Positions 2,541 to 38,900 of a stretch of DNA of 44,095 bases are shown piece by piece; within the stretch, counting starts at the first letter, position 1, and each line of letters begins with the position of its first letter. The position numbers and the translations under genes were made by a program. The stretch spans positions 1-44,095 of the forward strand of contig JANNTO010000066.1 in assembly GCA_031403675.1 (NCBI GenBank), in the 5' to 3' direction. This DNA comes from Gammaproteobacteria bacterium (GTDB lineage: Bacteria; Pseudomonadota; Gammaproteobacteria; Steroidobacterales; Steroidobacteraceae). The notes beneath the pieces were generated by a model. The model saw only the letters and a list, made by a program, of their open reading frames with translations, was not told the DNA's origin and ran no database searches.

Positions 2541-2573
2541 CCGAAACGAAAACGCCGGCCTCGTGGCCGGCGT
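2541..2573 (-). terminator. Rho-independent terminator downstream of the LysM gene
   Basis: Minus strand reads ACGCCGGCC-acga-GGCCGGCGT (9-bp GC stem, 2552-2573) followed by TTTCGTTTCGG (2541-2551). It lies about 25 nt after the LysM-protein stop at 2598. Confidence 0.6.
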
Positions 2574-2597
2574 CTGCGTGCAATCGATCGAGTGCGT

Positions 2598-9423: not shown

Positions 9424-10781
9424 CTTCGCCGAGAATACTCGTCGTTGACGATGAAGCCGATATTCGCCGGCTGCTCTCGGAAATCCTCGTGGAGGAGGGT
9501 TTCGAGGTGGAGATGGCAGCCGACGCCGCCGCCGCGAAGCGCGCCTGCGCGCGGCAGGAACCTGACCTCGTGCTGCTCGACATCTGGATGCCCGACATGG
9601 ATGGCATCACGCTGTTGCGCGAATGGTCCGAGAAGCATTCGTTGCGCTGCCCGGTCGTGATGCTGTCTGGTCACGGCACCGTCGAAACCGCGGTCGAGGC
9701 GACCCGGCTTGGCGCATTCGATTTCGTCGAGAAGCCTTTGTCGATTGCCAAGCTCCTGCGCACCGTCGAGCGCGCACTCGAGGCGGGGCGCAGACGCCGG
9801 CAGGCGCAGCGCACACTGATTCCGCCGCTGGTCGCGCCGGTCGGCAAGAGCCGGCTGATGCAGAAGCTGCGCGAACAGGTGCAACAAGTAGCGGGGCATG
9901 ATGCCCCCGTCCTTCTGGTCGGCGAGGCTGGCACCGGGCGCGAGGCATTTGCGCGCTATATGCACATGATGGGGCCACGTGCGACGGGCCCGTTCGTGGC
10001 AGTGACCTGTGCAAGTCTTGACGATGCAACCGCCGCTCTGAAACTGCGCGGCAGCGTCACGGAAGGCAAGGTCCAGAGCGGTTACTACGAGCAGGCTGGC
10101 GGTGGCACGCTGTTTCTGGGCGGCATCGAGGATTTGTCAGCGGCGGCGCAACGGCTGCTGCTGGCCGATCTGGAGCAGGGCGGCTGGCAGCGCGAAGGCA
10201 GTGGCGGCGAGCGTACGCCATTCAACCTGCGCATCGTCGCGGGCGCCGGACCCGGCCACGAAAACGCAGCGATTGGCCTGCGTCGCGATCTGCTCGCGCA
10301 TCTCGAAGTCATCTCGATCCGGATTCCGCCGCTGCGCGAATACACCGAAGACGTTTCCGATCTGCTACGCCACTACGTGGACCGGCTGGTGGACGAAGAG
10401 GGCATGCCGTTCCGTCGTTTCTCGGTCGCGGCGCAGAATCGCCTGCGCAACTATCCGTGGCCGGGCAATGTGCGCGAACTGCGCAACCTCGTGCAACGCC
10501 TGCTGATCATCGGCGGGCCCGAGGAGATCGGGCTCGCCGAGATCGAGCAGCAGCTGGTAACGCAACAAGCGCCGGATGAGCCACTGGTCAAGCAGGATCT
10601 GCTGGCTTTGCCGCTGCGCGAAGCGCGCGAACAGTTCGAACGCGCCTACCTGTTGCAGCAGTTGATGCTTTGCAATGGCAAGGTGGGGCTGCTCGCCAAG
10701 CGCGTCGGCATGGAACGTACCCATTTGTACCGCAAGCTGCGCTCGCTCGGCGTCGATTTCCGCCAGATCACCGAAGACTAA
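9420..10781 (+). CDS. NtrX-like response regulator (REC + degenerate sigma54-type AAA+ + Fis HTH)
   Basis: REC domain (ILVVDDE, LVLLDIWMPDMDG, KP). The central domain keeps PPLREYTEDV and WPGNVRELRN, but Walker A is GEAGTGRE, Walker B is LFLGGIEDL and there is no GAFTGA. C-terminal HTH (GLLAKRVGMERTHLYRKL). The start overlaps the kinase stop. Confidence 0.85.
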   Translation: MTSPRILVVDDEADIRRLLSEILVEEGFEVEMAADAAAAKRACARQEPDLVLLDIWMPDMDGITLLREWSEKHSLRCPVVMLSGHGTVETAVEATRLGAFDFVEKPLSIAKLLRTVERALEAGRRRRQAQRTLIPPLVAPVGKSRLMQKLREQVQQVAGHDAPVLLVGEAGTGREAFARYMHMMGPRATGPFVAVTCASLDDATAALKLRGSVTEGKVQSGYYEQAGGGTLFLGGIEDLSAAAQRLLLADLEQGGWQREGSGGERTPFNLRIVAGAGPGHENAAIGLRRDLLAHLEVISIRIPPLREYTEDVSDLLRHYVDRLVDEEGMPFRRFSVAAQNRLRNYPWPGNVRELRNLVQRLLIIGGPEEIGLAEIEQQLVTQQAPDEPLVKQDLLALPLREAREQFERAYLLQQLMLCNGKVGLLAKRVGMERTHLYRKLRSLGVDFRQITED

Positions 10782-10853
10782 AAGGGGACTGTCCCCTTTT
10801 TCCGCAGGGAAAAGGCGGACTGTCCCCTCTGCAATGGGATGCGTCCCCTTCTA
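10779..10853. repeat. Nested-palindrome intergenic element, subtype A (fills the whole ntrX-like/SPOR convergent spacer)
   Basis: TA-AAA-GGGGACTGTCCCC-TTTTTCC-gca-GGGAAAAGG-CGGACTGTCCCC ... GGGATGCGTCCCC-TTC-TA. The terminal TA dinucleotides belong to the TAA (10779-81) and TAG (10851-53, minus strand) stop codons. Confidence 0.85.
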
Positions 10854-11399
10854 GTCGACAACTTTGATGACGAGCACGTCCATTTCGGCCTCGCGCAGCC
10901 GCTCGCGCACGCGGTTGAGTTCCTTGAGGTCCGTGATTGGGCCGACGCGCACGCGGTGCCTGGTGTCGTTGTCGATAGAGACACGTTGTACCTTCGAAAC
11001 GATGCCCTGCAGCGCAAGCTGGGCCCGCACGCGGTCGGCGTCCTCGAATTTCCCGTACGAACCGACCTGTAGCACATAGGAACCTGCGCGTTCTACCGGC
11101 GCGGCCGGCGCAGTCGGCGCGTCACGCCGCACCACCGCCTCGCTCTCCGGCACGATGACCTCTGAATTTTTCAGCATGGCCGGGTAGTCGTACTCTTCCG
11201 CCGGCCCGGCGCCGGTGGGTTCGTGAATCGAAGCCGGTTGCGCATCCAGCGCCTCGCCCGCGGCTGGCGGCGTGCGGGGATCGAAGATATAGAGCGCAAG
11301 CCCGACCCCGAGGCCGGTAACCAGGCCGATGAACAGGCCGGTCCAGCCGGAGAACGGCTCGCGCCGCACCTTGCTCCGTTTGTAGTCGCGTGACACCAC
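10851..11399 (-). CDS. SPOR domain protein (septal peptidoglycan binding)
   Basis: N-terminal TM segment (GWTGLFIGLVTGLGVGLALYIF) and a C-terminal SPOR domain (YVLQVGSYGKFEDADRVRAQLALQG...HRVRVGP). The GTG start overlaps the argS TAG by 1 nt. Confidence 0.8.
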   Translation of the reverse strand: MVSRDYKRSKVRREPFSGWTGLFIGLVTGLGVGLALYIFDPRTPPAAGEALDAQPASIHEPTGAGPAEEYDYPAMLKNSEVIVPESEAVVRRDAPTAPAAPVERAGSYVLQVGSYGKFEDADRVRAQLALQGIVSKVQRVSIDNDTRHRVRVGPITDLKELNRVRERLREAEMDVLVIKVVD

Positions 11400-13165
11400 T
11401 ACATTGCCTCCGGCGCCGAAACGCCAAGCAGCCTGAGTGCATTCTGCAACACCTGCTGGGCCGAGGCGATCAGCGCGAGCCTTGCATTCCGCAGCTTCGC
11501 GTCATCGACGATGAAGGGCAGCGACGCATAGCAGGCATGAAACGAAGCCGCGAGTTCGCGCAGGTAGTGCACCACCATGTGCGGCGCCCGCAGTTCTGCC
11601 GACTGGTGCACGATCTCCGGCCAGCGCGAGATCTCGCGCATCAGCGCCAGTTCCGGTTCGCCGTCCAGCAGCGCGAGTTCGGCAAGACCGGTCGCGCGAT
11701 CGAATGGCAGGCCACGTTCGGCGGCCTGCTTCAGTACGCTTGCGATGCGCGCGTGCGCGTACTGGATGTAATACACCGGGTTGTCATTGCTGCGCGACTT
11801 CGCAAGCTCGAGGTCGAAGTCGAGGTGCTGGTCGTTCGAGCGCATCACATAGAAGAGTCGCGCTGCGTCATTGCCAACCTCGGCGCGCAGCGCCCGGAGC
11901 GTAACGAACTCGCCGGAGCGCGTGGACATCTGCACTTTCTCGCCGCCACGAAACAACGCTACGAACTGGATCAGCCGCACGTCGAGGCAGTCGCCGGGCT
12001 CGCCCATCGCGATCAGCCCGGCGCGCACCCGCGCGATGTAGCCGTGATGATCGGCGCCGAGGATCGTTACCAGCAGTTCGAAACCACGCTCGCGCTTCTC
12101 CAGGTGATAGGCGATATCGGACGCGAAGTAGGTCTTCTGCCCGTTGGCGCGCACCACGACGCGGTCCTTCTCATCGCCGAATCCGGTCGCGCGCAGCCAC
12201 AATGCGCCCGCCTGCTGGTAGACATGGTCGTGCTCGCGCAGCCGCTGGATGGCACGGGCGATCGGGCCGCCATCGGTACCGTCGCCGAGATCGCGTTCCG
12301 AGTACCAGCGGTCGAAGCGCACGCCGAAGCCATCGAGGTCAGCGCGGATGTCGGCCAGGATCTCGTTGAGTCCGGCATCGAACACGGTCTGGAAAGCAGT
12401 CGGGCCCAGCAGCTCTTTCGCGCGTGCGATCAGCGCGTCGATATAGAGATCCTTGTCGCCGCCCTCCGGTTCGTCGGGCGGCAGGCCCGCGAACACGGCG
12501 GCGCCGGAACTGCGCAGCGTGTCGCCGTGCCGGCCATGCAATGCGGCCGAAATCGGGCGGAGGTAATCACCGCGATAGGCGTTGGCCGGAAAACGGATGC
12601 TCTCACCGCAGATCTCGAGATAACGCAGCCACACGCTGGCCGCAAGAATGTCCATTTGCCGGCCTGCGTCGTTCACGTAGTACTCGCGATACACCTGCCA
12701 GCCGTCGGTCTCGAGCAGGTTCGCGACGGTCGCGCCGTAGGCCGCATGCCGGCCGTGACCGACATGCAATGGTCCGGTGGGATTGGCCGAGACGAACTCG
12801 ACGATCGCCTTACGGCCGCCACCAGCATTGCCGCGGCCATAGCTCGCGGCCGCCGAGTGTACCCGCGCGATCTCCGCCTGCCAGGCTGCCGGCGTCATGA
12901 AGAAATTGATGAACCCGGGTCCCGCGATCTCGGTTTTCACGATCAGTTCGTTCGCCGGCAGGGCCTTGATGATCGCCGTCGCGAGCGCGCGCGGATTGGT
13001 GCGCGCGGCCTTGGCGAGACGCATCGCGATGCTGCACGCAAAATCGCCGTGCGTCAGGTCGCGGCTGCGTTCGACCTCCGGTACCGGCGGCGCAACATCG
13101 CCAAGCGTCCCCGGCGGCAACGCCGCGAGCGCCTGCGTCACGAGCTTTTCGATCAGGTTCTTCAA
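11399..13165 (-). CDS. argS: Arginine--tRNA ligase
   Basis: HIGH-type motif (ANPTGPLHVGHGRH), the MSTRSG region and a DALR anticodon-binding C-terminus. Start set at TTG 13165 (MKNLIEKLVTQAL, a typical ArgS N-terminus). The longer ORF to 13246 runs into priA. Confidence 0.92.
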   Translation of the reverse strand: MKNLIEKLVTQALAALPPGTLGDVAPPVPEVERSRDLTHGDFACSIAMRLAKAARTNPRALATAIIKALPANELIVKTEIAGPGFINFFMTPAAWQAEIARVHSAAASYGRGNAGGGRKAIVEFVSANPTGPLHVGHGRHAAYGATVANLLETDGWQVYREYYVNDAGRQMDILAASVWLRYLEICGESIRFPANAYRGDYLRPISAALHGRHGDTLRSSGAAVFAGLPPDEPEGGDKDLYIDALIARAKELLGPTAFQTVFDAGLNEILADIRADLDGFGVRFDRWYSERDLGDGTDGGPIARAIQRLREHDHVYQQAGALWLRATGFGDEKDRVVVRANGQKTYFASDIAYHLEKRERGFELLVTILGADHHGYIARVRAGLIAMGEPGDCLDVRLIQFVALFRGGEKVQMSTRSGEFVTLRALRAEVGNDAARLFYVMRSNDQHLDFDLELAKSRSNDNPVYYIQYAHARIASVLKQAAERGLPFDRATGLAELALLDGEPELALMREISRWPEIVHQSAELRAPHMVVHYLRELAASFHACYASLPFIVDDAKLRNARLALIASAQQVLQNALRLLGVSAPEAM

Positions 13166-13178
13166 GTTCGCAATTCTA

Positions 13179-15365
<2,187 letters not shown>

Positions 15366-15469
15366 AACGTGTTCTTAATCAACTAGTTACGCAAATGTTC
15401 CGGGTGGCGTCAACGCCCCTCCCGCGGTCCACGTTATAGCACCGTGGCGAGGCTTCGAGTCGCACGCTG

Positions 15470-16093
15470 ATGCCGGAGGAGCCATTGATCCGATCTGCTA
15501 CGCTTTCGCTGCCCCTGTCGCTTGGCGGTGGGCGCGTCACAGCGCGGGAGACCTTGGTGGACCAGGAGCGGGCACTCGATCGATTCCTGGCCGGGATTGA
15601 GCGCAGGGCGTTGCGCATCGCGCGCATCGCGCTGCGCGATCATGCGGAGGCACAAGATGCCGTGCAGGACGCGATGATTCGCCTGGTGCGTAGTTATGGA
15701 CAGCGTCCGGAAGCAGAGTGGCGGCCACTCTTCTACCGGATCCTGCGGAACCGCATCACCGACAGCCAGCGACGGCAGAAAGTTCGTGGCGCTGTGATGG
15801 CCTGGTGGCCCGCGCGCGATGCGGACCAGACCGCGCTGGATCCGATTGAGTCGGCAGTCGATCCTGCTGGCAGCCCGGATCAGCAGCTGGAGGGCGCCGA
15901 ATTGCTCGAGCGCATCGAAACGGCGCTCGCCGGATTGAGCAGCCGCCAGCGCGAGGCTTTCCTGCTCAGGAATTTCGAAGGACTGGATGTCGCGCAGACG
16001 GCGGTGGCGATGGGTTGTTCGGAAGGCAGTGTCAAGACGCATTACTTCCGCGCGCTGCAGGCGCTGCAACAGGTATTGGGGGAACTGAAATGA
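15470..16093 (+). CDS. ECF-type RNA polymerase sigma factor
   Basis: Region 2 (DAVQDAMIRLV...FYRILRNRITD) and region 4 HTH (QREAFLLRNFEGLDVAQTAVAMGCSEGSVKTHYFRALQAL). The stop overlaps the next ATG (ATGA at 16090-93). Confidence 0.88.
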   Translation: MPEEPLIRSATLSLPLSLGGGRVTARETLVDQERALDRFLAGIERRALRIARIALRDHAEAQDAVQDAMIRLVRSYGQRPEAEWRPLFYRILRNRITDSQRRQKVRGAVMAWWPARDADQTALDPIESAVDPAGSPDQQLEGAELLERIETALAGLSSRQREAFLLRNFEGLDVAQTAVAMGCSEGSVKTHYFRALQALQQVLGELK

Positions 16094-16458
16094 CCGACGA
16101 ACGCATGCGGGAACTGGAACTGAAGAGCCGCGCGGCATTTGACGAGAGCGTCGCATCGCTCGATGCGGCGACGCGCTCGCGGCTCGCCCGTGCGCGGGCG
16201 CAAGCGCTCGAGGAATTGCGGCAGCGGCGCATGTCCTGGTCTTCGAACTGGGTGCCGGTGGGTGCCGCTGCGGCGGCGGCGCTGGTGGCCGTACTGCTGT
16301 GGCAGGGCGACGAGAGCGGCCAGCCGGCGAGCGAGCCCGCGCTCGCGGCGCTTGAGGACCTCGACATAGTCGCTGGCGGCGAGGATCTCGACATGTTTGA
16401 GGCGGACGACGGTTTCTATGCCTGGGCGGCCGATGAAGTGTCGGACGGCATGGGTTGA
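16090..16458 (+). CDS. DUF3619-like single-pass membrane protein (putative anti-sigma factor)
   Basis: 122 aa. N-terminus ELKSRAAFDESVASLDAATRSRLARARAQAL, one TM helix (VPVGAAAAAALVAVLLW) and an acidic C-terminal tail. Translationally coupled to the ECF sigma gene. Confidence 0.65.
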   Translation: MTDERMRELELKSRAAFDESVASLDAATRSRLARARAQALEELRQRRMSWSSNWVPVGAAAAAALVAVLLWQGDESGQPASEPALAALEDLDIVAGGEDLDMFEADDGFYAWAADEVSDGMG

Positions 16459-16461
16459 CAG

Positions 16462-16677
16462 GTGGGTCGCAGGAGTTTCATGGCGGCCTGTCTTCTCGCC
16501 TGGCCGGCGGTGGCTGCAGATGCGCCCGTGGTGCCGCTGGACCCGGAGTTCCTGGAGTTCCTGGGAGAAATGACCGACGAAGATGCGGAATTCGTCGAAT
16601 ACATGGAATCGGGCAAGGGCGAACGCGACTTGAAGCGCGCCGAGAAAGAGGCTTCGAAGGAAGACGACGATGAATAA
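16462..16677 (+). CDS. Small secreted acidic protein (hypothetical)
   Basis: 71-aa ORF with a GTG start (ATG alternative at 16480). Short signal-like N-terminus (MAACLLAWPAVAADA), then an extremely acidic sequence. Sits 4 nt after the previous stop and overlaps the next gene by 8 nt. No family recognised. Confidence 0.45.
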   Translation: MGRRSFMAACLLAWPAVAADAPVVPLDPEFLEFLGEMTDEDAEFVEYMESGKGERDLKRAEKEASKEDDDE

Positions 16678-17191
16678 GCTGGCATGGATTCTGGTGGCAT
16701 GGCTCGCATTCGGCACCGCGTCGGCGGTGGCTGAAGAGCAGGGTCAGGAACAGGAACAGTTGTCCGGCATGGCCTGGGAAGAACTCGACGAATCGCAGCA
16801 GGAGCTGCTCGCCGGCCAGAAGGACAACTGGAATTCGTTGCCGCCCAACCGTCAGCACGCGATGGCCGAGGGTGCCGAACGCTGGCTGTCGATGGACTCC
16901 GAACAGCGCGCGACCGCACAGGATCGCTGGAAGAAATGGCGCAAGCTCTCGCCGGAACAGCGCAAGCGCCTGCGCGAACGTTGGCGGCAGTTCCATGAAC
17001 TGACGCCGGAACAAAAAGAAGCGCTGCGCGAAAACTATCGCCGCTTCCAGTCCCTGTCCGAGGAACAACGCGCACACCTGCGGGATCGCTGGAACCGGAT
17101 GACGCCGGCAGAGCGCCAGCGCGCGATCCAGCGTCGCCAGCAACACCCACGGCCCGCGCCGCCGCCGTCGAACCGCCGACCCCCGGGTTGA
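16670..17191 (+). CDS. DUF3106 domain protein with seven 18-residue repeats
   Basis: Signal peptide (WILVAWLAFGTASAVA). Repeated W/F-x2-L-[ST]-x-E-Q-R units (LSPEQRKRLRERW, LTPEQKEALRENY, LSEEQRAHLRDRW). This is the usual partner of ECF sigma/DUF3619 operons. Confidence 0.75.
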   Translation: MNKLAWILVAWLAFGTASAVAEEQGQEQEQLSGMAWEELDESQQELLAGQKDNWNSLPPNRQHAMAEGAERWLSMDSEQRATAQDRWKKWRKLSPEQRKRLRERWRQFHELTPEQKEALRENYRRFQSLSEEQRAHLRDRWNRMTPAERQRAIQRRQQHPRPAPPPSNRRPPG

Positions 17192-17266
17192 AGCCGCGAC
17201 ACTCGCATCCGGCCCGGCTCCGTGGGAGGATGATCCGCTGTCATCCATCCCATTCCGGGGGTCGCG

Positions 17267-17461
17267 ATGCCGAACACGAAACTGAAGCGTTCCAATGACC
17301 GGATGATCGCCGGTGTCTGCGGCGGTCTCGCCGAATGGCTCGGCTGGAAAGCCGACCGGGTCCGCGTCGCCTACGTCATCCTCTCGATCCTGAGCGTCGC
17401 GTTTCCCGGCATCATCGTTTACCTGCTGCTGTGGCTGCTGATGCCCGACGCCGACACATGA
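17267..17461 (+). CDS. PspC domain-containing membrane protein
   Basis: 64 aa with LKRSNDRMIAGVCGGLAEWLGWKADRVRVAYVILSIL plus a TM helix, the typical PspC N-terminal domain. Confidence 0.85.
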   Translation: MPNTKLKRSNDRMIAGVCGGLAEWLGWKADRVRVAYVILSILSVAFPGIIVYLLLWLLMPDADT

Positions 17462-17497
17462 AGGGGACTGTCCCCTTTTAGGGGACTGTCCCCTCTT
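17461..17497. repeat. Nested-palindrome element, subtype A (two tandem GGGGACTGTCCCC cores)
   Basis: AAGGGGACTGTCCCCTTTTA-GGGGACTGTCCCCTCTT. It begins on the last base of the PspC-domain gene's TGA stop and ends 6 nt (the second core 10 nt) before the next gene's ATG (17504). Confidence 0.8.
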
Positions 17498-17503
17498 CAC
17501 ACC

Positions 17504-18367
17504 ATGGACCGCAAGTTCGTCCAGCTCTACGACGAATTCACGCACGGCACGATGCCGCGCCGTGAATTCCTGCGCCGCCTCGCGCGCATTGCCGGCGGTG
17601 CCGCGGCCGCCGCCGCGTCGTTGCCGCTGCTCGAGAGCCGCTACGCCAGCGCGGCGACCGTCGCGCCGAACGATCCGTCGATCATGGCTGGCCGCGAGCG
17701 CTTCGACGGCCCGGCTGGCTCGGTAAATGCCTATGTCGCATGGCCGACGAAAGTGCCCGGACGGCGTGGCGCCGTGGTCGTCATCCACGAGAACCGCGGG
17801 CTCAATGCGCACATCGAGGACGTTGCGCGCCGTCTGGCAAAAGCCGGGTTCGCGGTCGTCGCGCCGGATGCGCTTTCGGGTACCGGCGGCACGCCGGCGA
17901 ACGAGGACGAGGCGCGAAAACTGATCGGCGAACTCGACCGCGAGACTGCGCTCGGCATCTATCTCGCCGCCGTGCGTCACGCGGCAGCCCATCCGCATGG
18001 CCAGGGCAAGGTCGGCTGCGTCGGGTTCTGCTGGGGCGGCGGCATGGCCGGACGGCTTGCTGCGAACTCGAAAGAACTGAATGCAGCGGTCGTTTTCTAC
18101 GGCATGCCGCCGGCGGCGGACGAAGCCGCGCGCGTGCGCGTGCCTCTGCTGCTGAACTACGCCGGCCGCGACGAGCGCATCAATGCCGCCGTGCCGGCTT
18201 TCGAACAAGCACTGAAAGCCGCTGTTGCCCGCTTCGAACTTCACACCTACCCCGACGTCGACCACGCCTTCCACAACGACACCAACGCTGCCCGCTATAA
18301 CGCTGCGGCCGCCGAACTGGCATGGAAACGCACGGTGGAATTCCTCACGCGCGAACTCGATGGCTGA
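17504..18367 (+). CDS. Dienelactone hydrolase family protein (Tat-signal)
   Basis: Twin-arginine-like leader (PRREFLRRLARIAGGAAAAAASLPLL) and a DLH fold (VVVIHENRGLNAHIEDVARRLA, GCVGFCWGGG, DHAFHND). Confidence 0.85.
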   Translation: MDRKFVQLYDEFTHGTMPRREFLRRLARIAGGAAAAAASLPLLESRYASAATVAPNDPSIMAGRERFDGPAGSVNAYVAWPTKVPGRRGAVVVIHENRGLNAHIEDVARRLAKAGFAVVAPDALSGTGGTPANEDEARKLIGELDRETALGIYLAAVRHAAAHPHGQGKVGCVGFCWGGGMAGRLAANSKELNAAVVFYGMPPAADEAARVRVPLLLNYAGRDERINAAVPAFEQALKAAVARFELHTYPDVDHAFHNDTNAARYNAAAAELAWKRTVEFLTRELDG

Positions 18368-18483
18368 ACTCGTTCGATTCGCGCGCGCCGTTGGCGCGCC
18401 GGGCTGGCTCGCGCGCTCAGAAGAACGGACATTCGCTTGCTCGCCCGCCGGGCCGTTGCGGGCGGCGGCGTGTGACTGGCGCG

Positions 18484-19908
18484 CTAACCGGCCGCTTTGA
18501 CAGCGTGAATGAGCTCGCCCGCGACTTTCTGCGCATCGCCGTACACCATGCGCGTGTTGTCGAGATAGAACAGGTGATTCTCGATGCCCGAGAACCCGGC
18601 GCCCTGACCGCGCTTGATGACCAGCACATTCTTCGCCTTGTCGGCATTCAGGATCGGCATGCCGTAGATCGGGCTGCCCTTGTCGGTGCGCGCGACCGGG
18701 TTGACCACGTCATTCGCGCCGATCACGAGCGCAACGTCCGCGGTCTCGAACTCGGCGTTGATCTCGTCGAGATCCGCGATCAGGTCGTAAGGAACGCCGG
18801 CCTCGGCCAGCAACACATTCATATGGCCCGGCATGCGCCCCGCGACCGGGTGGATCGCGAAGCGCACCTGCACGCCCTTGTCGATCAGCAGTTGGCACAG
18901 CTCCCAGACCTTGTGCTGCGCCTGTGCGACCGCCATGCCGTAGCCCGGGATCACGATCACCTTCTGCGCGAAAGCCATCATCACGCCCGCGTCCGACGCC
19001 TCGATCGGCTTGAGTGCGCCGCTCACGCCTTCGGCGGCGGCGGCTTCGCCTTCGCCGAAGCCCGAGAACAGCACGTTGCCGAGCGAGCGGTTCATCGCTT
19101 TTGCCATCAGCTGCGTCAGCAGCGTGCCGGCGGAACCCACCACGATGCCCGCGATGATCATCGCGGCGTTCTCGAGCACGAAGCCCTCGAACGCGACCGC
19201 AAGGCCGGTGAAGGCGTTGTACAGCGAAATCACGACCGGCATGTCGGCGCCGCCGATCGGCAGTGTCATTGTCACGCCGAGCAGGAGTGCGAGCCCGAAG
19301 AACAGGATCACCATCTGCATGGTCGGGTGATCGGTGATGACGAGCGAGGCGCCGAGCGCGAGCGTTGCCGCGACGATCGCGAGGTTGAATGCCTGCTGGC
19401 CCTTGAAGCGCAGGCTGCGCTTGATCAGGCCCTGCAGCTTGCCGAAGGCGATCAGCGAACCGGAGAAGCTGACCGCGCCGATGAAAGCACCGGCCGCGGC
19501 CAGCGCAGTCACGACCGGACCATGTTCTGCCACCGCGCCTGGGTCCGCGGACGCCATGCGCAGCAGTTCGACCGCGGCGATCGCCGCCGCCGCGCCACCG
19601 CCCATGCCGTTGTAGAGCGCGATCATCTGCGGCATATCGGTCATCGCGACGATGCGCCCGGACCACCAGGCGAGCCCGCCCCCGATCGCGATCGCGGCCA
19701 GCATCAGCGCGAAATTCCCCATGCCGGGATAGAGAAAGCTCATTACCGTGCCGATCAGCATGCCGAAGCCCGCGACGACGATGCCGCGCCGCGCCGTGAC
19801 CGGCGAACTCATGGCCTTGAGGCCCATGATGAAAAGGAATGCCACCAGCAGGTAGCTGAAGTCGATCGCAAGCGTCGCGACGCGGTCGGGGAGCAGGCCC
19901 TGCATCAC
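18484..19908 (-). CDS. pntB: NAD(P) transhydrogenase subunit beta
   Basis: 474 aa. N-terminal membrane domain plus the dIII NADP(H) domain (VIVIPGYGMAVAQAQH, FAIHPVAGRMPGHMNVLLAEA, IGANDVVNP). Confidence 0.95.
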   Translation of the reverse strand: MMQGLLPDRVATLAIDFSYLLVAFLFIMGLKAMSSPVTARRGIVVAGFGMLIGTVMSFLYPGMGNFALMLAAIAIGGGLAWWSGRIVAMTDMPQMIALYNGMGGGAAAAIAAVELLRMASADPGAVAEHGPVVTALAAAGAFIGAVSFSGSLIAFGKLQGLIKRSLRFKGQQAFNLAIVAATLALGASLVITDHPTMQMVILFFGLALLLGVTMTLPIGGADMPVVISLYNAFTGLAVAFEGFVLENAAMIIAGIVVGSAGTLLTQLMAKAMNRSLGNVLFSGFGEGEAAAAEGVSGALKPIEASDAGVMMAFAQKVIVIPGYGMAVAQAQHKVWELCQLLIDKGVQVRFAIHPVAGRMPGHMNVLLAEAGVPYDLIADLDEINAEFETADVALVIGANDVVNPVARTDKGSPIYGMPILNADKAKNVLVIKRGQGAGFSGIENHLFYLDNTRMVYGDAQKVAGELIHAVKAAG

Positions 19909-20207
19909 GCGGACTCCTTCTTCTTTTTCTGGCCGCTCGCCTTGAACATCTGCAGCATCCGCTCGGTCACGACATAGCCGCCGACCGCGTTACCGGCGCC
20001 GAGCACGACACCGATGAAGCCGATGACCTGCTCGAGTACCGTGTCGGCGCGGCCGAGTGCCACCATCGCACCGACCAGCACGATGCCGTGCACGAAGTTC
20101 GATCCGGACATCAGCGGCGTGTGCAGGATCACCGGTACCTTCGCGATGACTTCGTAGCCGGCGAATGCCGCCAGCATCACGATATAGAGTGCGATCACGC
20201 CTTCCAT
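19905..20207 (-). CDS. pntAB: NAD(P) transhydrogenase subunit alpha part 2 (membrane)
   Basis: 100-aa hydrophobic protein (HTPLMSGSNFVHGIVLVGA). Overlaps pntB by 4 nt and pntAA by 1 nt. Confidence 0.9.
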   Translation of the reverse strand: MEGVIALYIVMLAAFAGYEVIAKVPVILHTPLMSGSNFVHGIVLVGAMVALGRADTVLEQVIGFIGVVLGAGNAVGGYVVTERMLQMFKASGQKKKKESA

Positions 20208-21334
20208 TACGCGGCCTCCACGGTCTTGCGGGTGGGTTCGTGGCGGATGCTGCCCTCGTGCGTGACGCAGGACGCCGCGAATACTTCGTCGTTCCAGTCG
20301 ATGGCCAGCGCGCCGTCCTTGAACGCAGGCCGGATGAAGTTCAGGAGATTGCGCGCATACATGTCGCTCGCGTGATAGGCGACGGTTGCCGGCAGGTTGA
20401 TCGGTCCGATGATGCGCACGCCCTGGTGCTCGACGGTTTCACCCGCTTTGGTCAGTTCGCAGTTGCCGCCGCCCTCGGCGAGCAGGTCCACGATCACTGC
20501 GCCCTGCTTCATGCGTTCGACCGCGGCCCGCGAGATGATGCGCGGCGCCGGCCGACCCGGGACACCGGCGGTCGAGATCACGCAATCGGCTGCGGCAATA
20601 CGCGAATCCAGCACTTCCTGCTGCTTTGCTTTTTCCTCGGCGGTCAGCTCGCGTGCGTAACCGCCGGCACCTTCTGCCACGACGCCGGTCTCGACAAATT
20701 TCGCGCCGAGCGAACGGATCTGCTCGCGCGTCGCGCTGCGGACGTCGTAGGCCTCGACCACCGCGCCGAGCCGGCGGGCTGTTGCAATGGCCTGCAGACC
20801 GGCGACACCGGCGCCGATCACGAGCACGGTGGCGGGGCGGATCGTGCCGGCCGCGGTGGTCAGCATCGGGAAGAACTTGTCGAGTGCGCTGGCTGCAAGC
20901 AGTACGGCCTTGTAGCCGGAAACGGCCGCTTGTGAGGACAGCGCATCCATGGATTGGGCACGCGAGATGCGTGGCACCAGTTCCATCGCGAAACTCGTGA
21001 TCCGGCGCTCCTTCAGCACACGCACCAGCGCGGCCTGCGCATGGGGCGCGAGGAAGCCGATGAGCACGGAACCCGGTTTCAGGCGCTCCGCGACCTCCGA
21101 AGTGGGGGGCTGGACCGTCAGCAGCAGGTCGGAGGCCGCGAGCACGGCTTCCGCGCCGTCGGCAAACGCGACATCCTGGTATTGTGGGTCCGGAAAGCGG
21201 GCCGCCTGGCCGGCGCCGCGTTCGATCAATAGACGCGCCCCGAGGGCGGAAAGGCGGGTGGCGACCTCCGGGACGACCGCCACGCGGTTTTCGCCCCGCA
21301 CGGTCTCCTTCAGCACGCCGATCGTGACTGGCAT
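20207..21334 (-). CDS. pntAA: NAD(P) transhydrogenase subunit alpha part 1 (dI, NAD(H)-binding)
   Basis: ATG at 21334 (MPVTIGVLKETVRGENRVA) and a Rossmann motif (VLVIGAGVAGLQAIATARRLGA). The 5' extension of ORF 20207..22099 is antisense to the HNH gene and was rejected. Confidence 0.93.
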   Translation of the reverse strand: MPVTIGVLKETVRGENRVAVVPEVATRLSALGARLLIERGAGQAARFPDPQYQDVAFADGAEAVLAASDLLLTVQPPTSEVAERLKPGSVLIGFLAPHAQAALVRVLKERRITSFAMELVPRISRAQSMDALSSQAAVSGYKAVLLAASALDKFFPMLTTAAGTIRPATVLVIGAGVAGLQAIATARRLGAVVEAYDVRSATREQIRSLGAKFVETGVVAEGAGGYARELTAEEKAKQQEVLDSRIAAADCVISTAGVPGRPAPRIISRAAVERMKQGAVIVDLLAEGGGNCELTKAGETVEHQGVRIIGPINLPATVAYHASDMYARNLLNFIRPAFKDGALAIDWNDEVFAASCVTHEGSIRHEPTRKTVEAA

Positions 21335-21433
21335 CCAAATCCTCCCCGGAATTGCCCACCGAGCGGCGGCGCGTTGGAAAATATCATAATCGTGGCTTAA
21401 TGTTTCAGGGTTTCGGGCCTGGGGAATGGGGTT

Positions 21434-22087
21434 GTGAGCACGGATTTGGGCAAGGCAAGGGTTCAGGTCGAGGCGGACAGCCTGGAATTCCGGCTGTCGC
21501 AGCAGGTGCTGCGCACGGATGCCTCCGGCATGCCGCTTGAATGGATCGACTATAAGGAGGCGGTGCGCCTGCACTGTCTGGGCCAGGTGGCCTATGCGTT
21601 CGGCAGCCGCCTGTACGCGCTGCATGGCGGCACCAATGCGCGCACCGGCCGCCAGACCGTCATCGAAGTGAATTCGATGATGGCGACGCAGGGTTCCTCC
21701 GGCAATCCGGGCAGCCTGCGCGGCGATTACGTGCCGCCGCTCAACAACGAGACGCTGTTTCGCCGCGATGCCAACCTGTGCATGTACTGCGGCGGCCGCT
21801 TCACCGCGCACCAGCTGTCGCGCGATCACGTGCGTCCGTTCTGCCAGGGCGGCCGGGATGTCTGGAACAATGTGGTCGCGGCCTGCCGCCGCTGCAACAA
21901 CGCCAAGGCCTCGCGCACGCCGGAGCAGGCGCACATGCAACTGCTCGCCGTGCCGTTCACGCCGACCTATGCCGAGTACATCTACCTGAAAGGCCGGCGC
22001 GTGCTGGCCGACCAGATGGAATACCTGCTCGCGCACTTTCCGCGAACCAGCCCGCTGCACGCGCGCATCCAGCGATTCAGGCAGTGA
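21434..22087 (+). CDS. HNH endonuclease
   Basis: HNH/zinc motif CMYCGG..LSRDHVRPFCQGGRDVWNNVVAACRRCNNAKA (about nt 21779-21907). The start is uncertain: GTG 21434, or GTG 21506 just before the conserved DASGMPLEWI. The stop overlaps the next gene's GTG. Confidence 0.8.
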   Translation: MSTDLGKARVQVEADSLEFRLSQQVLRTDASGMPLEWIDYKEAVRLHCLGQVAYAFGSRLYALHGGTNARTGRQTVIEVNSMMATQGSSGNPGSLRGDYVPPLNNETLFRRDANLCMYCGGRFTAHQLSRDHVRPFCQGGRDVWNNVVAACRRCNNAKASRTPEQAHMQLLAVPFTPTYAEYIYLKGRRVLADQMEYLLAHFPRTSPLHARIQRFRQ

Positions 22088-22986
22088 AGCGCGCACCAAG
22101 CGAGCCCGTCCACCTGATCGACGCGAGCTTCTTCGTGTTCCGTGCCTACTACTCGGTGGGCCTCGAGATGACCGACGTCGATGACCAGCCGGTCAACGCG
22201 CTGTACGGCTTCGGGCGCTTTCTCGGCGATCTGCTCGAGGAGGCGAAACCGGCGCACATCGCGGTGGCATTCGACGAAAGCCTGTCGAGCTCGTTCCGGA
22301 ACGAGATCTTTCCAGCCTACAAGGCGAATCGCGAACCCGCGCCGCCGGAACTGAAACGCCAGTTCGCACTGTGCCGGCAGCTCTGCCGCCTGCTCGGCAT
22401 CGCCGAGTTCAGCAGCCCCACACACGAGGCCGACGACATCATCGGCACCCTCGCGACGCGGTTTCGCGAACGCGGGCACAACTCAGTGCTGGTCACGCGC
22501 GACAAGGACCTTGCGCAACTGATCCGCGACGGCGACGCGTACTGGGATTACGCGGGCGAGCGCCGTTACGGCTATGCCGACATCGAAGGGCAATTCGGCG
22601 TGCGCCCGGAGCGCATGGCGGATTTCCTGGCGCTGACCGGCGACACGGTGGACAACATCCCGGGCATCCCGGGTGTCGGGCCGAAGACTGCGGCCGTGCT
22701 GTTACGCGAATTCGCCTCGTTGGAAGAAATCTACGCGGGCCTCGAAAAAGTGCCTGGACTGCCGATCCGTGGCGCCGGCAAGTTGCCAGCGCGTCTGCGC
22801 GAACATCGCGATGCCGCCTTCTTCGCGCGCCGGCTGACCACGATCGCCTGTGACATGCCGATCGACGCGACGGCCGAGAGCCTGACGCGCCGCGCACCCG
22901 ATCTTGAGGCACTCGGGATATTCTACGATCAGGCCCGCTTTGGCCAGGCGCTGCGCCGGCAGGCGGAGCGCCTCGCCAGGGTGTAA
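22084..22986 (+). CDS. 5'-3' exonuclease / flap endonuclease (Xni/ExoIX-like, PIN-like + H3TH)
   Basis: GTG 22084 ([23 protein letters not shown]). Motifs [31 protein letters not shown] and H3[22 protein letters not shown]. The longer ORF from 21778 overlaps the HNH gene. Confidence 0.88.
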
Positions 22987-23054
22987 AAGGGGACGTTACC
23001 CTTTTCCTCTTGTCCTTCGGGAAAAGGGTAGGAAAAGGGTAACGTCCCCTTTTA
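22984..23054. repeat. Nested-palindrome element, subtype B
   Basis: TA-AAAGGGGACGTTACCCTTTTCC-(loop with an extra GGAAAAGGGTA)-GGAAAAGGGTAACGTCCCCTTT-TA. The arms pair perfectly over about 22 nt. The left TA is part of the exonuclease TAA stop. Confidence 0.9.
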
Positions 23055-23065
23055 CGACTGGTGCT

Positions 23066-23737
23066 GTGTTGGAACGCAGACTGATTCCGTTGCCTGGCTA
23101 CGTGGAATATCCACCGGACGAAATGCTCGCCCGTGCGCGTGGCTTTGCCGACGAAGTGCAGCGCCGCAGAACGGTGCGCGATTTCTCCGATCGGCCGGTG
23201 CCGCGGGCGCTGATCGAGCAATGTCTGCGCAGCGCCGGGTCCGCACCGTCGGGCGCCAATCAGCAGCCCTGGCATTTCGTCGCGGTTTCTGATCCGCTCA
23301 CCAAGCACCGGATCCGAACCGCGGCCGAAGCCGAAGAGCGCGAGTTTTACCAACACCGCGCGCCGCCCGAATGGCTGGAGGTCCTGCAGCCGCTCGGCAC
23401 CGATGCGAGCAAACCATTTCTGGAGATCGCGCCCTGGCTGATCGCGGTCTTCATCCGCCGCTTTGAGCGGCTGCCGGACGGCAGCAAGCGCAAGCACTAC
23501 TACACCGACGAATCGGTCGGACTCGCAACCGGGCTGCTGCTCGCGGCCATTCACCACGCGGGCCTCGTGTCGCTGACCCACACGCCAAGCCCGATGAAGT
23601 TCCTGAATAAAATCCTCGACCGCCCGAAGGACATCGAACGGCCGTTCCTGCTGTTGGTCGTCGGCTATCCGGCGGCGCGCGCGATGGTTCCCGACATCGG
23701 GCGCAAACCGCTCACGGAAATCGCGACGTTCAAATAA
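23066..23737 (+). CDS. Nitroreductase family protein
   Basis: [13 protein letters not shown]...[14 protein letters not shown] plus a C-terminal LLVVGYP. Start GTG 23066 or TTG 23069. The upstream part of ORF 22904..23737 merely translates the repeat. Confidence 0.85.
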
Positions 23738-23795
23738 AAGGGGACGTTACCCCTTTTCCTTCGATCCTTCGGGAAAAGGGTAACGTCCCCTTTTA
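23735..23795. repeat. Nested-palindrome element, subtype B (between convergent genes)
   Basis: TA-AAAGGGGACGTTACCCCTTTTCC-ttcgatccttcg-GGAAAAGGGTAACGTCCCCTTT-TA. Both terminal TAs are inside the TAA stop codons of the flanking genes (23735-37 plus strand, 23793-95 minus strand). Confidence 0.9.
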
Positions 23796-32888: not shown

Positions 32889-32944
32889 AAAAAGGGGACG
32901 TTACCCTTTTCTCATACAGGAAAAGGGTAACGTCCCCATTAAAA
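32889..32944. repeat. Nested-palindrome element, subtype B
   Basis: AAAAAGGGGACGTTACCCTTTTC-tcatacag-GAAAAGGGTAACGTCCCCATTAAAAG. Lies between the hemH start (25 nt away) and the OMP gene stop (about 58 nt away). Confidence 0.88.
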
Positions 32945-33001
32945 GAAACGGCGGCCGGAGGATGGACCACCGGCCGCCGAATCACGCATCGATCGTCAGA
33001 A

Positions 33002-36294: not shown

Positions 36295-37421
36295 TTTGCG
36301 GCGCCTTTCCAGCTGTCCACGTAGCCCGCCCATTCCACCTGCGCGGCGGCGGGATCAATCTCGAGGGCGTCGCGCGTATCCACCATCACCGCGTACTCAT
36401 CGGTCGCGGGTTTGGACTGCACCAGCATGCGCGCCAACGCCTTCGGATGCGGGCCGTGCGTGAAACCGGCGGGATGCAGCGTCACCATGCCCGGATGGAT
36501 ACTGTCGCGGCTGAAGAAATCGCCCGCGTGGTAGAAGATGGCTTCGTCGTAGTCGTCGTTGTTGTGGAAGAACGGGATCTTGATCGCGCCCGAATCGGTC
36601 TCGAACGGCCGCGGCACAAAGGTGCAGACTACAAAGCGGTTGCCGACGAAAGTCGTGTGCGCCGACGGCGGCAGGTGATAGCGATGGCTCATCAGCGGGC
36701 GGATGTCACGCACATTGATGCGGCATACCGACAGCTCGCCGTGCCAGCCGATCGCATCGAGCGGGTTGTACGGAAACGTGACGGTTGAAACGGCATTGCG
36801 GCGCTTGATCGCGACTCGCCAGGCCTTCTCATCCTGCTGTGCCAGGAAAGCCTCGTCCACGCGCGGCGCGTCCAGCATCGCCGGATCAAAGATCGCCTGC
36901 CCGCCGAGCAGGCCCTTGTCCGGCAGCAGGTAGGAGGCGTTGGTCGCCTCGACCATCAGGATTGCCGTGGGCTCCGCGCATTCCAGCCGCCACATCGTGC
37001 CGCGCGGCAGCACGATGTAATCGCCCGCCTCGAATGCCAGGTGTCCGAAATCGCAGAACAGCTCGCCATGCCCCTGGTGCACGAACAAGAGCTCGTCGCC
37101 GTCGGCATTGCGAGCGAGGGCATCCATCTTTCCTGCGACGCGCCAGAAGCGGATCCGGCAATGCGCGTTGTGCATGACCGCGGCGGCAGACCACGGGTGC
37201 GCCGTGACCGCATCGAGTCTGGTCAGGTCGAAGGCATGGGGTGAGAGCGGTCCTTCAAAGGACGACCAACCGGTCGGCGGGTGGCGGTGGTGAAAGAACG
37301 CCGCCGGGCCGAAGAATCCTTCCTTGCTCATTTCGCGCTCAAAGGTGCCGGGCGGCAGGTCGCAGTGCGCCTGACGGGACGCGGTACCCTCAATGCGGGA
37401 GTGGCCTATATAGCGTTTCAT
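36291..37421 (-). CDS. Homogentisate 1,2-dioxygenase family (cupin) protein, short form
   Basis: 376 aa, with FVHQGHGELFCDFG..GDYIVLPRGTMWR and FFHNNDDYDEAIFYHAGDFFSR...HPAGFTHGPHP. Family-level call only. Substrate unknown. Confidence 0.6.
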   Translation of the reverse strand: MKRYIGHSRIEGTASRQAHCDLPPGTFEREMSKEGFFGPAAFFHHRHPPTGWSSFEGPLSPHAFDLTRLDAVTAHPWSAAAVMHNAHCRIRFWRVAGKMDALARNADGDELLFVHQGHGELFCDFGHLAFEAGDYIVLPRGTMWRLECAEPTAILMVEATNASYLLPDKGLLGGQAIFDPAMLDAPRVDEAFLAQQDEKAWRVAIKRRNAVSTVTFPYNPLDAIGWHGELSVCRINVRDIRPLMSHRYHLPPSAHTTFVGNRFVVCTFVPRPFETDSGAIKIPFFHNNDDYDEAIFYHAGDFFSRDSIHPGMVTLHPAGFTHGPHPKALARMLVQSKPATDEYAVMVDTRDALEIDPAAAQVEWAGYVDSWKGAAK

Positions 37422-38809
37422 CTGCTCAATTTAGTTTCATCTGCAACTAATAGCAAGTTGGGAGCAAGTTGGGGACTGTCCCCATTTCCGCGCAGCGAAA
37501 AAGGGGACAGGCCCCACTTAGCCAGCCACGATGATCGTTCCATGATGGCCGTCACGCCCATGCCGCCCGCGGTGCACACCGAGATCAGGCCGCGGCCCGA
37601 GCCACGTTCCGCCAGCAGCTTGGCGAGCGTCGCGACGATGCGTGCGCCAGTCGCCGCGAATGGGTGACCGACTGCGACCGAACCGCCCTTGACGTTGAGC
37701 TTGGCACGTTCGATCGAGCCGAGTGGCGCGGAAAGTCCGAGCCGCTCGCGGCAGAACTGCGGCGATTCCCAGGCTTTGAGCGTGCACAGCACCTGCGCCG
37801 CAAAGGCCTCGTGGATCTCGTAGAAATCGAAGTCCTGCAGGCGCAGCCCGGCATCGGCCAGCATCCGTGGCACGGCGTAGGCGGGCGCCATCAGCAGGCC
37901 CTCGCCGCCGACGAAATCGACTGCCGCCGCTTTGCCATAGGTCATATACGCCTGAATCGGCAGTCCACGCGAATTCGCCCAGTCCTCGCTCGCGAGCAGC
38001 ACGCTCGCGGAGCCGTCGGTCATCGGCGTGCTGTTGCCGGCGGTCAGCGTCCCATCCGCGGCAAACGAGGGCTTGAGTTTCGCGAGCTTCTCGAGGCTGG
38101 TGTCGGCGCGGACATTGTTATCGGCCGCAACACCGAGATACGGCACGACCAGATCCGACATGAATCCTTCGGCCCAGGCGCGGGCCGCGCGCTGGTGGCT
38201 CTGGAAGGCCAGTTCATCCTGTTCGGCACGCGTGATTTTCCAGGTGCGTGCCATCTGTTCGGCGTGCTGGCCCATCGACAGCCCGGTGCGTGGCTCGCCG
38301 GTGCCCGGATACGAGGGCTTGAAATGGCGCGGCCGCAGGCCGAGAAAGGGCTTGATGCGCTCGCCGAAACTGCGTGCGCGGAACACCCGCAGCATCAGTT
38401 GCTGATACTCGCGCCCGAACACGATCGGTGGGTCGCTGACCGTGTCCACGCCGCCGGCGATGCCGGCGTCAATCTGGCCGAGCGCGATCTTGTTGGCGAT
38501 TGCGATCGCGGCCTCGATGCTGGTGCCGCACGCGCGTTGCACGTCGAGTCCCGGCGTCTCGGGCGACAGGCCGGAATCAAGTAGCGCTTCGCGCGCGAGA
38601 TTCCACTGGCTCGAATGCTTCATCACCGCGCCGGCGATGACATCGCCGAGCCGCACGCCCTTGAGCGAAAACCGGTCCACCACGGCCTTGAGCGAGGTCG
38701 TGAGCATCTGCTGGTTACCGACGCTCGCATAGGCGCCGTGGGCGCGCGCGAACGGAATGCGTGCGCCGCCGATGACAGCGACACGACGGGGTACTGATCC
38801 GACCAGCAT
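37418..38809 (-). CDS. Acetyl-CoA C-acyltransferase (thiolase) with a repeat-encoded C-terminal extension
   Basis: ATG 38809 preceded by GGAGAA. Active-site regions (VQRACGTSIEA, NVKGGSVAVGHPFAATG, SVCTAGGMGVTAIMER). About 38 residues follow the usual ..IMER end and translate the repeat. The stop overlaps the next ATG. Confidence 0.85.
   Translation of the reverse strand: MLVGSVPRRVAVIGGARIPFARAHGAYASVGNQQMLTTSLKAVVDRFSLKGVRLGDVIAGAVMKHSSQWNLAREALLDSGLSPETPGLDVQRACGTSIEAAIAIANKIALGQIDAGIAGGVDTVSDPPIVFGREYQQLMLRVFRARSFGERIKPFLGLRPRHFKPSYPGTGEPRTGLSMGQHAEQMARTWKITRAEQDELAFQSHQRAARAWAEGFMSDLVVPYLGVAADNNVRADTSLEKLAKLKPSFAADGTLTAGNSTPMTDGSASVLLASEDWANSRGLPIQAYMTYGKAAAVDFVGGEGLLMAPAYAVPRMLADAGLRLQDFDFYEIHEAFAAQVLCTLKAWESPQFCRERLGLSAPLGSIERAKLNVKGGSVAVGHPFAATGARIVATLAKLLAERGSGRGLISVCTAGGMGVTAIMERSSWLAKWGLSPFSLRGNGDSPQLAPNLLLVADETKLSR
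37471..37520. repeat. Nested-palindrome element, subtype A (degenerate right arm), lying inside the 3' tail of the thiolase ORF
   Basis: GGGGACTGTCCCCATTTCC-gcgcagc-GAAAAAGGGGACAGGCCCC-ac-TTA. On the minus strand it is preceded by TAA-GT, the same offset as at other gene ends but out of frame. Confidence 0.8.
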
Positions 38810-38900
38810 GGGGGTTCTCCGGTGAAGGCGGGACTGGGTTGCGTTCCGGTAGAATGCCAGCATCCACACGGGCCCGCCACGGCGCGCCACCCGGTGCCTC

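Follow-up and report, generated by a model that had tools for sequence, protein, structure and literature searches.

The 44,095-nt window analyzed here is an entire metagenome contig (JANNTO010000066.1, assembly GCA_031403675.1) from a gammaproteobacterium of the Steroidobacteraceae, whose source genome is seen only through these ~44 kb. It carries six copies (A to F) of a short palindromic element with an A-run and a GGGGAC core at its ends, which at four of the six loci directly contacts the stop codons of the adjacent genes. These four copies, A to D, were the ones used in an earlier sequence-only reading of the contig. Copy A (10779..10853) lies between the convergent ntrX and SPOR genes and combines a singlet palindrome (AAAAGGGGACTGTCCCCTTTT) with a degenerate second unit and with an arm reading GGGATGCGTCCCC. 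Copy B (17459..17499, plus strand), at the end of the PspC-domain gene, is built of two singlets GGGGACTGTCCCC in tandem, the ends being symmetric (TGAAG...CTTCA), and the start ATG of the DLH gene follows downstream at 17504. Copy C (22984..23054) is a doublet with perfect 26-nt arms (GTAAAAGGGGACGTTACCCTTTTCCT, 100% complementary), the left TAA of which is the stop codon of the exonuclease gene, while its right TTA (23052-54) serves no real gene. Copy D (23735..23795), also a doublet, spans the spacer of the convergent nitroreductase and acetyl-CoA hydrolase genes. Copies E and F break the rule of stop contact. Copy E (32889..32940), a doublet of the same subtype, is not located at a stop codon but past the T-run of the canonical terminator of an outer membrane protein (OMP) gene, with the ferrochelatase ATG (32863) 26 nt away, downstream. 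Copy F (37468..37520, minus strand), a doublet GGGGCCTGTCCCC...GGGGACAGTCCCC, lies downstream of a thiolase gene, and its TAA (37518-20), though just 2 nt away from the core, is not in frame. The spacers occupied by A and D are convergent and those occupied by B, C, E, and F co-directional, with none being divergent.

Direct reading and a scan of open reading frames (ORFs) confirmed all six stop positions that had been reported. Five read stop, AA, and GGGGAC: ntrX (TAA 10779-81, plus strand), the SPOR gene (TAG 10851-53, minus strand), the exonuclease (TAA 22984-86, plus strand), the nitroreductase (TAA 23735-37, plus strand), and the acetyl-CoA hydrolase (TAA 23793-95, minus strand). The PspC gene reads TGA, A, and GGGGAC (TGA 17459-61, plus strand). 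The identities of these junction genes were borne out by Pfam, and the element indeed makes up the whole spacer of the two convergent pairs at 10779-10853 and 23735-23795. The window contains 340 ORFs that run from stop to stop over 70 codons or more, and in 7 of them GGGGAC was found 0-2 nt past the stop, where chance would give 0.28 (Poisson P 2e-8). Besides the six junctions, these include one spurious antisense ORF, whose stop is the right-hand TTA (23052-54) of copy C. GGGGAC by itself was not enriched (24 matches vs 21 in shuffles), but the arm pattern GGGGACKKTMCCCYTTT was found 13 times in the window and not at all in shuffles.

The element occurs in two forms. The singlet is a perfect palindrome of roughly 21 nt, AAAAGGGGAC(T/A)GTCCCCTTTT, and the doublet has the structure AAAAGGGGAC-GTTACCC-TTTTCC-loop-GGAAAA-GGGTAAC-GTCCCCTTTT, with a length of 40-75 nt. 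The outer ends follow the pattern (T/TG/GG)-A4-5-GGGGAC, after which 6-7 genome-variable nucleotides, always mirrored in the partner arm, are followed by TTTTCC and a short loop. In the doublets C, D, E, and F, the arms measure 21-26 nt and are 86-100% complementary. The element hairpins account for four of the five longest local inverted repeats of the window, and their RNA folds range from -28 to -58 kcal/mol with z-scores of -3.9 to -9.8: copy A yielded -42.6 (plus strand) and -42.3 kcal/mol (minus strand; z -5.1 and -3.9), copy B -27.7 kcal/mol (z -5.8), and copy C -58.1 kcal/mol (z -9.8), while in the fold of copy D the stop codon itself is paired at the stem base. The T-runs are just 4-5 nt long and pair with the A-run. 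A simple terminator scan flagged a single arm, with terminator-like sites not in excess over shuffles, and an Rfam scan of the window returned no family for the elements. Behind the OMP gene (~32941-32980, minus strand) and the LysM gene (2546-2579, minus strand) stand canonical intrinsic terminators (GGCGGCCGG...CCGGCCGCC with a T-run), the former being kept in five relatives. Thus, ordinary terminators are in use beside the repeats.

For comparison, we used the syntenic loci of seven Steroidobacteraceae genomes, available as ~20-kb pieces, and a wider set of 106 metagenome contigs, each containing an exact 19-mer arm; individual loci and contigs are designated by L numbers below. Homologues of its proteins assign the window contig to uncultured Steroidobacteraceae. 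A degenerate-pattern contig scan, the listed matches of which came from many phyla, provided L064, L036, L072, and L097 as useful contigs; an exact-protein look-up with the NtrX of the window returned no match on record. Arms were present in all sets of related loci except one (the 9-kb L238).

Junction D offers a clear case of filled and empty sites. In L121 and L230, it is empty, and the hydrolase and nitroreductase stops overlap as CTAG, whereas L122, which is 94% identical to L230, carries a 67-nt element different from that of the window, placed exactly at the central TA of the CTAG so that TAA is regenerated on either strand, CTC-TA-[AGGGGACGCACACC...GGTGTGCGTCCCCT]-TA-ATA. Taking out this element together with one TA gives back both stops exactly. 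A nested element of the L122 subtype occupies the site in L231, while the window copy is of the GTTACCC subtype. The nitroreductase has equal length in all genomes compared, with or without the element, and the hydrolase end differs by 0-2 residues among 120 orthologues. At the PspC stop (junction B), five genomes are occupied, with the distance d from stop codon to GGGGAC core being 0-1 nt and the stops being TGA, TGA, TAG, TAA, and TGA; L235 and L232 are empty and show an ATGA stop/start overlap, and the PspC C-terminus has the same length in both states. L122 has a second doublet directly at this stop. A seeming inverted copy of the terminal PspC codons beside that doublet was rejected, as the match consists mostly of the element's own CCCCTCTTC flank. 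Junction C (exonuclease stop) is occupied in 6 of 6 genomes by five arm subtypes, always 0-3 nt from the stop, and junction A (ntrX and SPOR) in 4 of 4, with d values of 2/2, -1/2, 13/0, and 3/2 and with other arm subtypes in L233, L234, and L235. Junction E is occupied in the window only, the element being absent in L236/L121, L237, and L232. The C-termini of the exonuclease and the SPOR protein vary by one residue among occupied genomes, while NtrX has D at the same final position in 119 of 120 orthologues, 95 of which read ...DFRQITED. From these comparisons, the stop positions are ancestral, the element was added at them, and the native ends have been neither truncated nor replaced. Together with the empty CTAG sites and TAA-rich adjacent gene ends (see below), the unchanged C-termini largely support the first explanation offered by the sequence-only reading, i.e., neutral insertion into a stop codon.

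At junction A (10776-10781 / 10851-10856), the last sense codons of the convergent pair are identical and seem to co-vary, with GAC/GAC, GAT/GAT, and GAC/GAC in the window, L233, and L234; the stop types of both genes also tend to match, and in L161, TTC stands on both sides. An inverted repeat reaching into the last sense codons was considered and dropped, with complementarity past 3 nt being at background in a tiny sample.

The offset from stop to core, which had been described as fixed, is 2 nt in the copies of this contig alone, the equivalent junctions of relatives having values of -1, 0, 1, 2, or 3 nt. When the distances were tabulated, contact with the stop therefore emerged as a strong tendency, whereas the 2-nt offset did not hold as a constant. 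Across the eight genomes, 34 gene ends have a core within 60 nt, with d of at most 5 nt in 23 of them, and L236 and L234 include spacers of 13-18 nt. In the metagenome set, in which ORF calls are heuristic and the filter overlooked small low-GC genes, 89 arms have a coding-like ORF end between -45 and +70 nt from the core, and d lies between -1 and 5 in 28 of these, peaking at 2-3. The offsets in the 106 contigs thus range from -1 to 5 nt plus a tail, and 21 of 53 arms with d above 5 have another arm or shell starting no more than 6 nt from the stop.

Stop usage was compared for 214 distinct gene ends of the eight genomes, which are orthologous and thus not independent; an element lies within 5 nt of 23 ends and at 6-60 nt of 11 (several doubtful), while 180 are without an element. 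TAA was used at 12 of the 23 element-adjacent ends (52%) but at only 20 of 179 (11%) elsewhere (P 1.4e-5), and TGA at 6 of 23 compared to 134 of 179 (P 7e-6). The direction of the TAA enrichment is that expected if the A-run completes TA to TAA.

A terminal TA, however, is no constant feature of the element as had been proposed. The 205 flank-deduplicated arms taken from the metagenome set and the related loci have (G)G-A4-5-GGGGAC as their upstream consensus; the A-run is preceded by G in 136 arms, by T in 51 (25%), and by C in 18, while the copies at the PspC junction read TGA-N-GGGGAC. Copies A, C, and D are bordered by TA on either side, as are the junction C elements of L121, L230, and L122, including the gene-free side. 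Counted by eye from the junction sequences, such two-sided TA is present in 9 of ~16 complete Steroidobacteraceae copies overall. Beyond the A/T runs, the left and right flanks are complementary at frequencies of 0.72, 0.54, and 0.41 (nulls: 0.53, 0.33, and 0.27) before background is reached, with GG..CC, TG..CA, GT..AC, and AT..AT being the commonest pairs. As a consequence of such symmetric pairs, stop triplets are present at both ends, even where a gene lies on one side only (copy C). A palindrome that includes the stop fits this complementarity better than plain TA duplication does.

Arm subtypes are genome-specific, whereas the occupied positions are shared. Among the genomes compared, the GTTACCC subtype was found in the window only, GCACACC in GCA_973520805 and L122, AGACAC in the L122/L230 lineage, GGACAC in L235, and GGTCAC in L232. 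A 13-nt loop, CCTTCGRTCCTTCGG, is conserved across copies with different arms, and in L187, nested shells of the form G-TA-...-TA-C occur. Copies are gained and lost among close relatives, as seen in the filled/empty pairs. The combination of such pairs, genome-specific subtypes, a conserved loop, and nesting indicates a replicating family, with turnover or concerted evolution, rather than independently evolved terminators. The loop CCTTCG(A/G)TCCTTCGG, a mini-hairpin (window 23757-23772 and 23008-23024; L235 ~1690; L125, L153, L157, and L161), is conserved across differing arm subtypes. All-against-all BLAST of metagenome contig pairs for target-site duplications yielded complex rearrangements and no clean filled/empty pair.

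Copy F illustrates the cost of an element that does not restore the stop, with the thiolase ORF running through the hairpin. Its TAA (37518-20) is out of frame because a 14-nt insert (37521-37534, minus-strand TCATCGTGGCTGGC) separates it from the last conserved codon of the thiolase (...AIMER). The ORF (37418-39019, minus strand) consequently has 38 extra codons, passing through copy F and ending at a TGA in overlap with the ATG of the next, HgmA-like gene. AIMER is found near the C-terminus in 16 of 16 orthologue ends read and is directly followed by the stop in 11, and nearly all of 120 matches are 425-427 amino acids long. The insert is either a real frameshift or an error in the assembly of this metagenome-derived genome. 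In L238 (~1570-1623), the thiolase stop has also been lost: CGG is followed by TGGGACCCCGAC, and the ORF is 16 codons longer, reaching the same ATGA; this end resembles a scar left when an element was deleted along with the TAG. Elsewhere in the window (39211-39286, plus strand), ARAGORN called a tRNA-Ala(TGC) within a MatE-like coding region, where the Rfam gathering scan found no tRNA, and the call is probably a false positive.

The explanation that we favor, with moderate confidence, is that of a palindrome family resembling repetitive extragenic palindromic (REP) elements or their paired form, REPINs, or else a very small MITE (miniature inverted-repeat transposable element), which enters or survives only at gene 3' boundaries, where stops are rebuilt. 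In these compact genomes, the spacer before insertion is zero or negative, as in convergent CTAG and tandem ATGA overlaps, and the sole insertion point harmless to both genes would lie within or right after the stop codon. Whichever strand is read, the ends start with A..., and a T or TG ahead of the A-run is frequently part of the palindrome. Hence, on both strands, what is left of the old stop, TA (or TG), would become TAA (or TGA) again, with the native protein ends retained. Copies failing to restore the stop would let the ORF read through the element and would be purged by selection, the outcome being a stop followed by 0-3 nt and GGGGAC. Candidate movers include an IS630-like TA integrase, a REP-associated tyrosine transposase (RAYT), or a mechanism targeting hairpin centers. 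It is the mobility mechanism and the selective filter that we infer here, whereas a putative role of the RNA as a bidirectional terminator or 3'-end stabilizer is plausible. That the contact persists at junctions B and C and that only convergent and tandem spacers are used is in keeping with such a role, but the functional empty sites, the split of a coupled gene pair, and the position of copy E behind a canonical terminator argue that it is not required.

Several observations weigh against this explanation. Neither a transposase nor a RAYT was found, no genome-wide search for either having been made. A clean TA duplication is seen in one case only (junction D of L122), and removal of copy D from the window leaves TAT for the hydrolase, so that later substitutions must be assumed; furthermore, the PspC junction and most metagenome copies are without TA. 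Random insertion would favor larger spacers, and the strong bias toward stops therefore needs target preference or selection. In addition, the gene ends compared are orthologous rather than independent, and the metagenome ORF calls are heuristic. Lastly, all genomes occupied at junctions B and C retain the contact of 0-3 nt although arm subtype and stop differ, which could equally reflect selection for the contact itself. This leads to an account that we consider unlikely, in which selection makes the hairpin start at the stop, where it would act as a bidirectional intrinsic terminator, as a block to 3'-exonucleases, or as a structure to be unwound by terminating ribosomes. The last possibility resembles the REP elements of Escherichia coli within about 15 nt of a stop, which reportedly cause stalling and trans-translation, as described by Liang, Rudd and Deutscher in 2015. 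The arrangement of A-run, GC hairpin, and T-run on both strands would suit such a function, as would the pairing of the stop in the stem base, the absence of copies from divergent spacers, and the persistence at B and C through turnover of subtypes and stops. However, relatives do without the element at the empty CTAG and ATGA sites, one insertion separates a translationally coupled ATGA pair, and copy E follows an intact canonical terminator. The short, partly paired T-runs, the single arm flagged by the terminator scan without any excess, the variable offset, and the 13-18-nt spacers in L236 and L234 speak against it as well.

There is a similarly small chance that the elements are miniature derivatives of IS630/Tc1-mariner insertion sequences (ISs) with strict insertion into TA, preferably CTAG or GTAC, and duplication of the TA, in which case stops would simply be the main neutral TA sites at 66% GC. 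Insertion into TA with TA duplication is known for the IS630 family (PMC2170065), and the comparison of L122 with L230 (CTC-TA-[AGGGGAC...GTCCCCT]-TA-ATA) conforms to it, as do the two-sided TA flanks seen in copies A, C, and D and in the junction C elements (L121, L230, and L122) and the nested shells G-TA-...-TA-C in L187. Such strict targeting is difficult to reconcile with the base preceding the A-run, which is far more often G than T (136 and 51 of 205 arms), with the TGA-N-GGGGAC copies at the PspC junction, and with a palindrome that reaches 2-3 nt past the A/T runs with variable complementary bases, which target duplication does not predict. With 40-75 nt, the elements are also far below the known sizes of TA-targeting MITEs (RUP, 107 bp; Correia species, 107 and 155 bp; PMC2229807). 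No IS with AAAGGGGAC ends turned up in the fetched loci, no systematic search having been made. We give still less weight to a mobile cassette of a double stop plus hairpin, in which the stem holds a stop triplet at each end and a mover (a transposase, or a hairpin-apex or template-switch mechanism) would specifically target palindromic stop junctions (CTAG, TTAA, and the centers of earlier hairpins), prying overlapping genes apart; formation of the RNA hairpin would be gated by the terminating ribosome, and arms would be homogenized per genome while positions persist. By far the least probable option is that of immobile, ordinary intrinsic terminators that evolved separately at each gene end and are alike as a common solution. 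Although the bare palindrome AAAAGGGGACWGTCCCCTTTT was found in many phyla among the matches listed and occurs in viral contigs (3 matches vs 26 and 14 for control palindromes), this does not account for identical 19-26-nt arms with a conserved loop at unrelated loci and in 106 contigs, genome-specific subtypes, clean presence/absence between genomes that are 94% identical, or nested and tandem copies. The notion of AAAAGGGGACWGTCCCCTTTT as a universal motif was dropped, since the control palindromes were equally or more common in viral contigs.

Other repeats were noted in the same material. A single phage contig, IMGVR_UViG_2596583602_000001 (L268, L272, L273, and L276), holds at least 7 copies of the control palindrome AAAGGGGTCTGACCCCTTT, indicating that genome-specific families with an A-run, G4 hairpin, and T-run are not confined to this lineage. 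In L122 (3354-3452), an unrelated 99-nt palindromic insert (AACGCGCTCGCCGGG...CCCGGCGAGCGCGTT) that is missing in L230 is located just past the stop of a peptidase S46 gene and represents a second mobile palindrome family of these genomes. A MITE-like insert of 187 nt occupies positions 13794-13980 of L234, separating the argS start from the priA stop; it has ~22-nt terminal inverted repeats (GGAACCTCTGATWTACCCGCGC) and is missing in L233, L235, and the window. Furthermore, in contig L134 (2015-4100; also L149, L174, and L207), minigenes for BrnT/BrnA-like and HigA-like toxin-antitoxin systems form a cassette-like array. Three of the L134 minigenes each end in TAA, 1 nt, and GGGGAC; the ends read TAA, 1 nt, and GGGGACGTTACCC, followed by a common stretch of at least 56 nt in the two copies compared. 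An origin of the elements as integron attC sites was rejected, as the flanking genes are housekeeping genes with synteny conserved across 7 genomes; no GTTRRRY/RYYYAAC cores were found, and a cassette-like layout was seen in the metagenome contig L134 only.

Contact between repeats and stop codons is itself a known phenomenon, given the precedent of GTAG REPs, the termini of which provide TAG stops (Di Nocera, De Gregorio and Rocco 2013, PMC3733652). REPs were found mainly between convergent and co-directional ORFs, the convergent ones being less than 20 bp from both 3' ends (PMC3733652), which contradicts the earlier statement that ordinary REPs show no zero-spacer phasing with stops. As short, many-copy palindromes (six loci and 13 arms in 44 kb), the elements described here are of REP type, and they resemble GTAG/CGTC REPs, including SMAG of Stenotrophomonas, in occurring at high copy number as singlets and head-to-head dimers, in their placement in convergent or co-directional spacers near 3' ends, in forming genome-specific families, and in having some copies inside ORFs (PMC3733652). 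Unlike these REPs, however, they have neither an unpaired GTAG or CGTC tag nor a CCA tail but fully paired ends of A-run and GGGGAC, and the stop that their A-run provides is mostly TAA (or TGA), with a symmetric arrangement of the two ends. CGTC was found only within the GTTACCC-subtype arm (AACGTCCCC), never at an end. Lacking the tags, the elements fall outside the GTAG and CGTC super-families. With the REPIN-RAYT system (bioRxiv 10.1101/2021.07.10.451892), they share the arrangement of two inverted REP-like units in one long hairpin, and, as in the REPINs of Bertels and Rainey, they lie outside genes, persist vertically, and have sequences specific to the lineage; unlike in that system, no RAYT was seen in the ~44 kb of the source genome and the 20-kb pieces of relatives. 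Terminal inverted repeats and TA flanks in many Steroidobacteraceae copies recall TA-targeting MITEs of IS630/Tc1-mariner descent such as RUP of pneumococcus and Correia/NEMIS of Neisseria (for the biochemistry of ISY100, see PMC2170065), as do the one filled/empty pair that fits TA duplication and a transcribed hairpin that may affect mRNA (PMC2229807). The present elements differ from these in being much smaller, mostly without flanking TA, and palindromic throughout, and in that a parent IS is not known. In Neisseria and Pasteurellaceae, inverted pairs of DNA uptake sequences (DUS) or uptake signal sequences (USS) that lie downstream of genes serve as terminators. Here, too, a short conserved motif (GGGGAC) is inverted to form terminator-like hairpins at gene 3' ends, but the arms are conserved well past a 10-12-nt motif, insertion/deletion polymorphism is observed, and there is no evidence of a competence-linked uptake bias.

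Thus, the family of palindromes ending in an A-run and GGGGAC, which apparently has not been described so far, adds no new mechanism, as stop codons supplied by REPs have been on record since 2013, but is an addition to the REP/REPIN/MITE class from uncultured Steroidobacteraceae and related sediment bacteria. For genome annotation, it accounts for a local excess of TAA in a TGA-dominated genome, and it serves as a warning that ORFs reading through hairpins, such as that of the thiolase, are probably artifacts of frameshift or stop loss. For these genomes, the filled/empty pair indicates that entry into overlapping convergent stops (CTAG) is possible with both proteins left unchanged.

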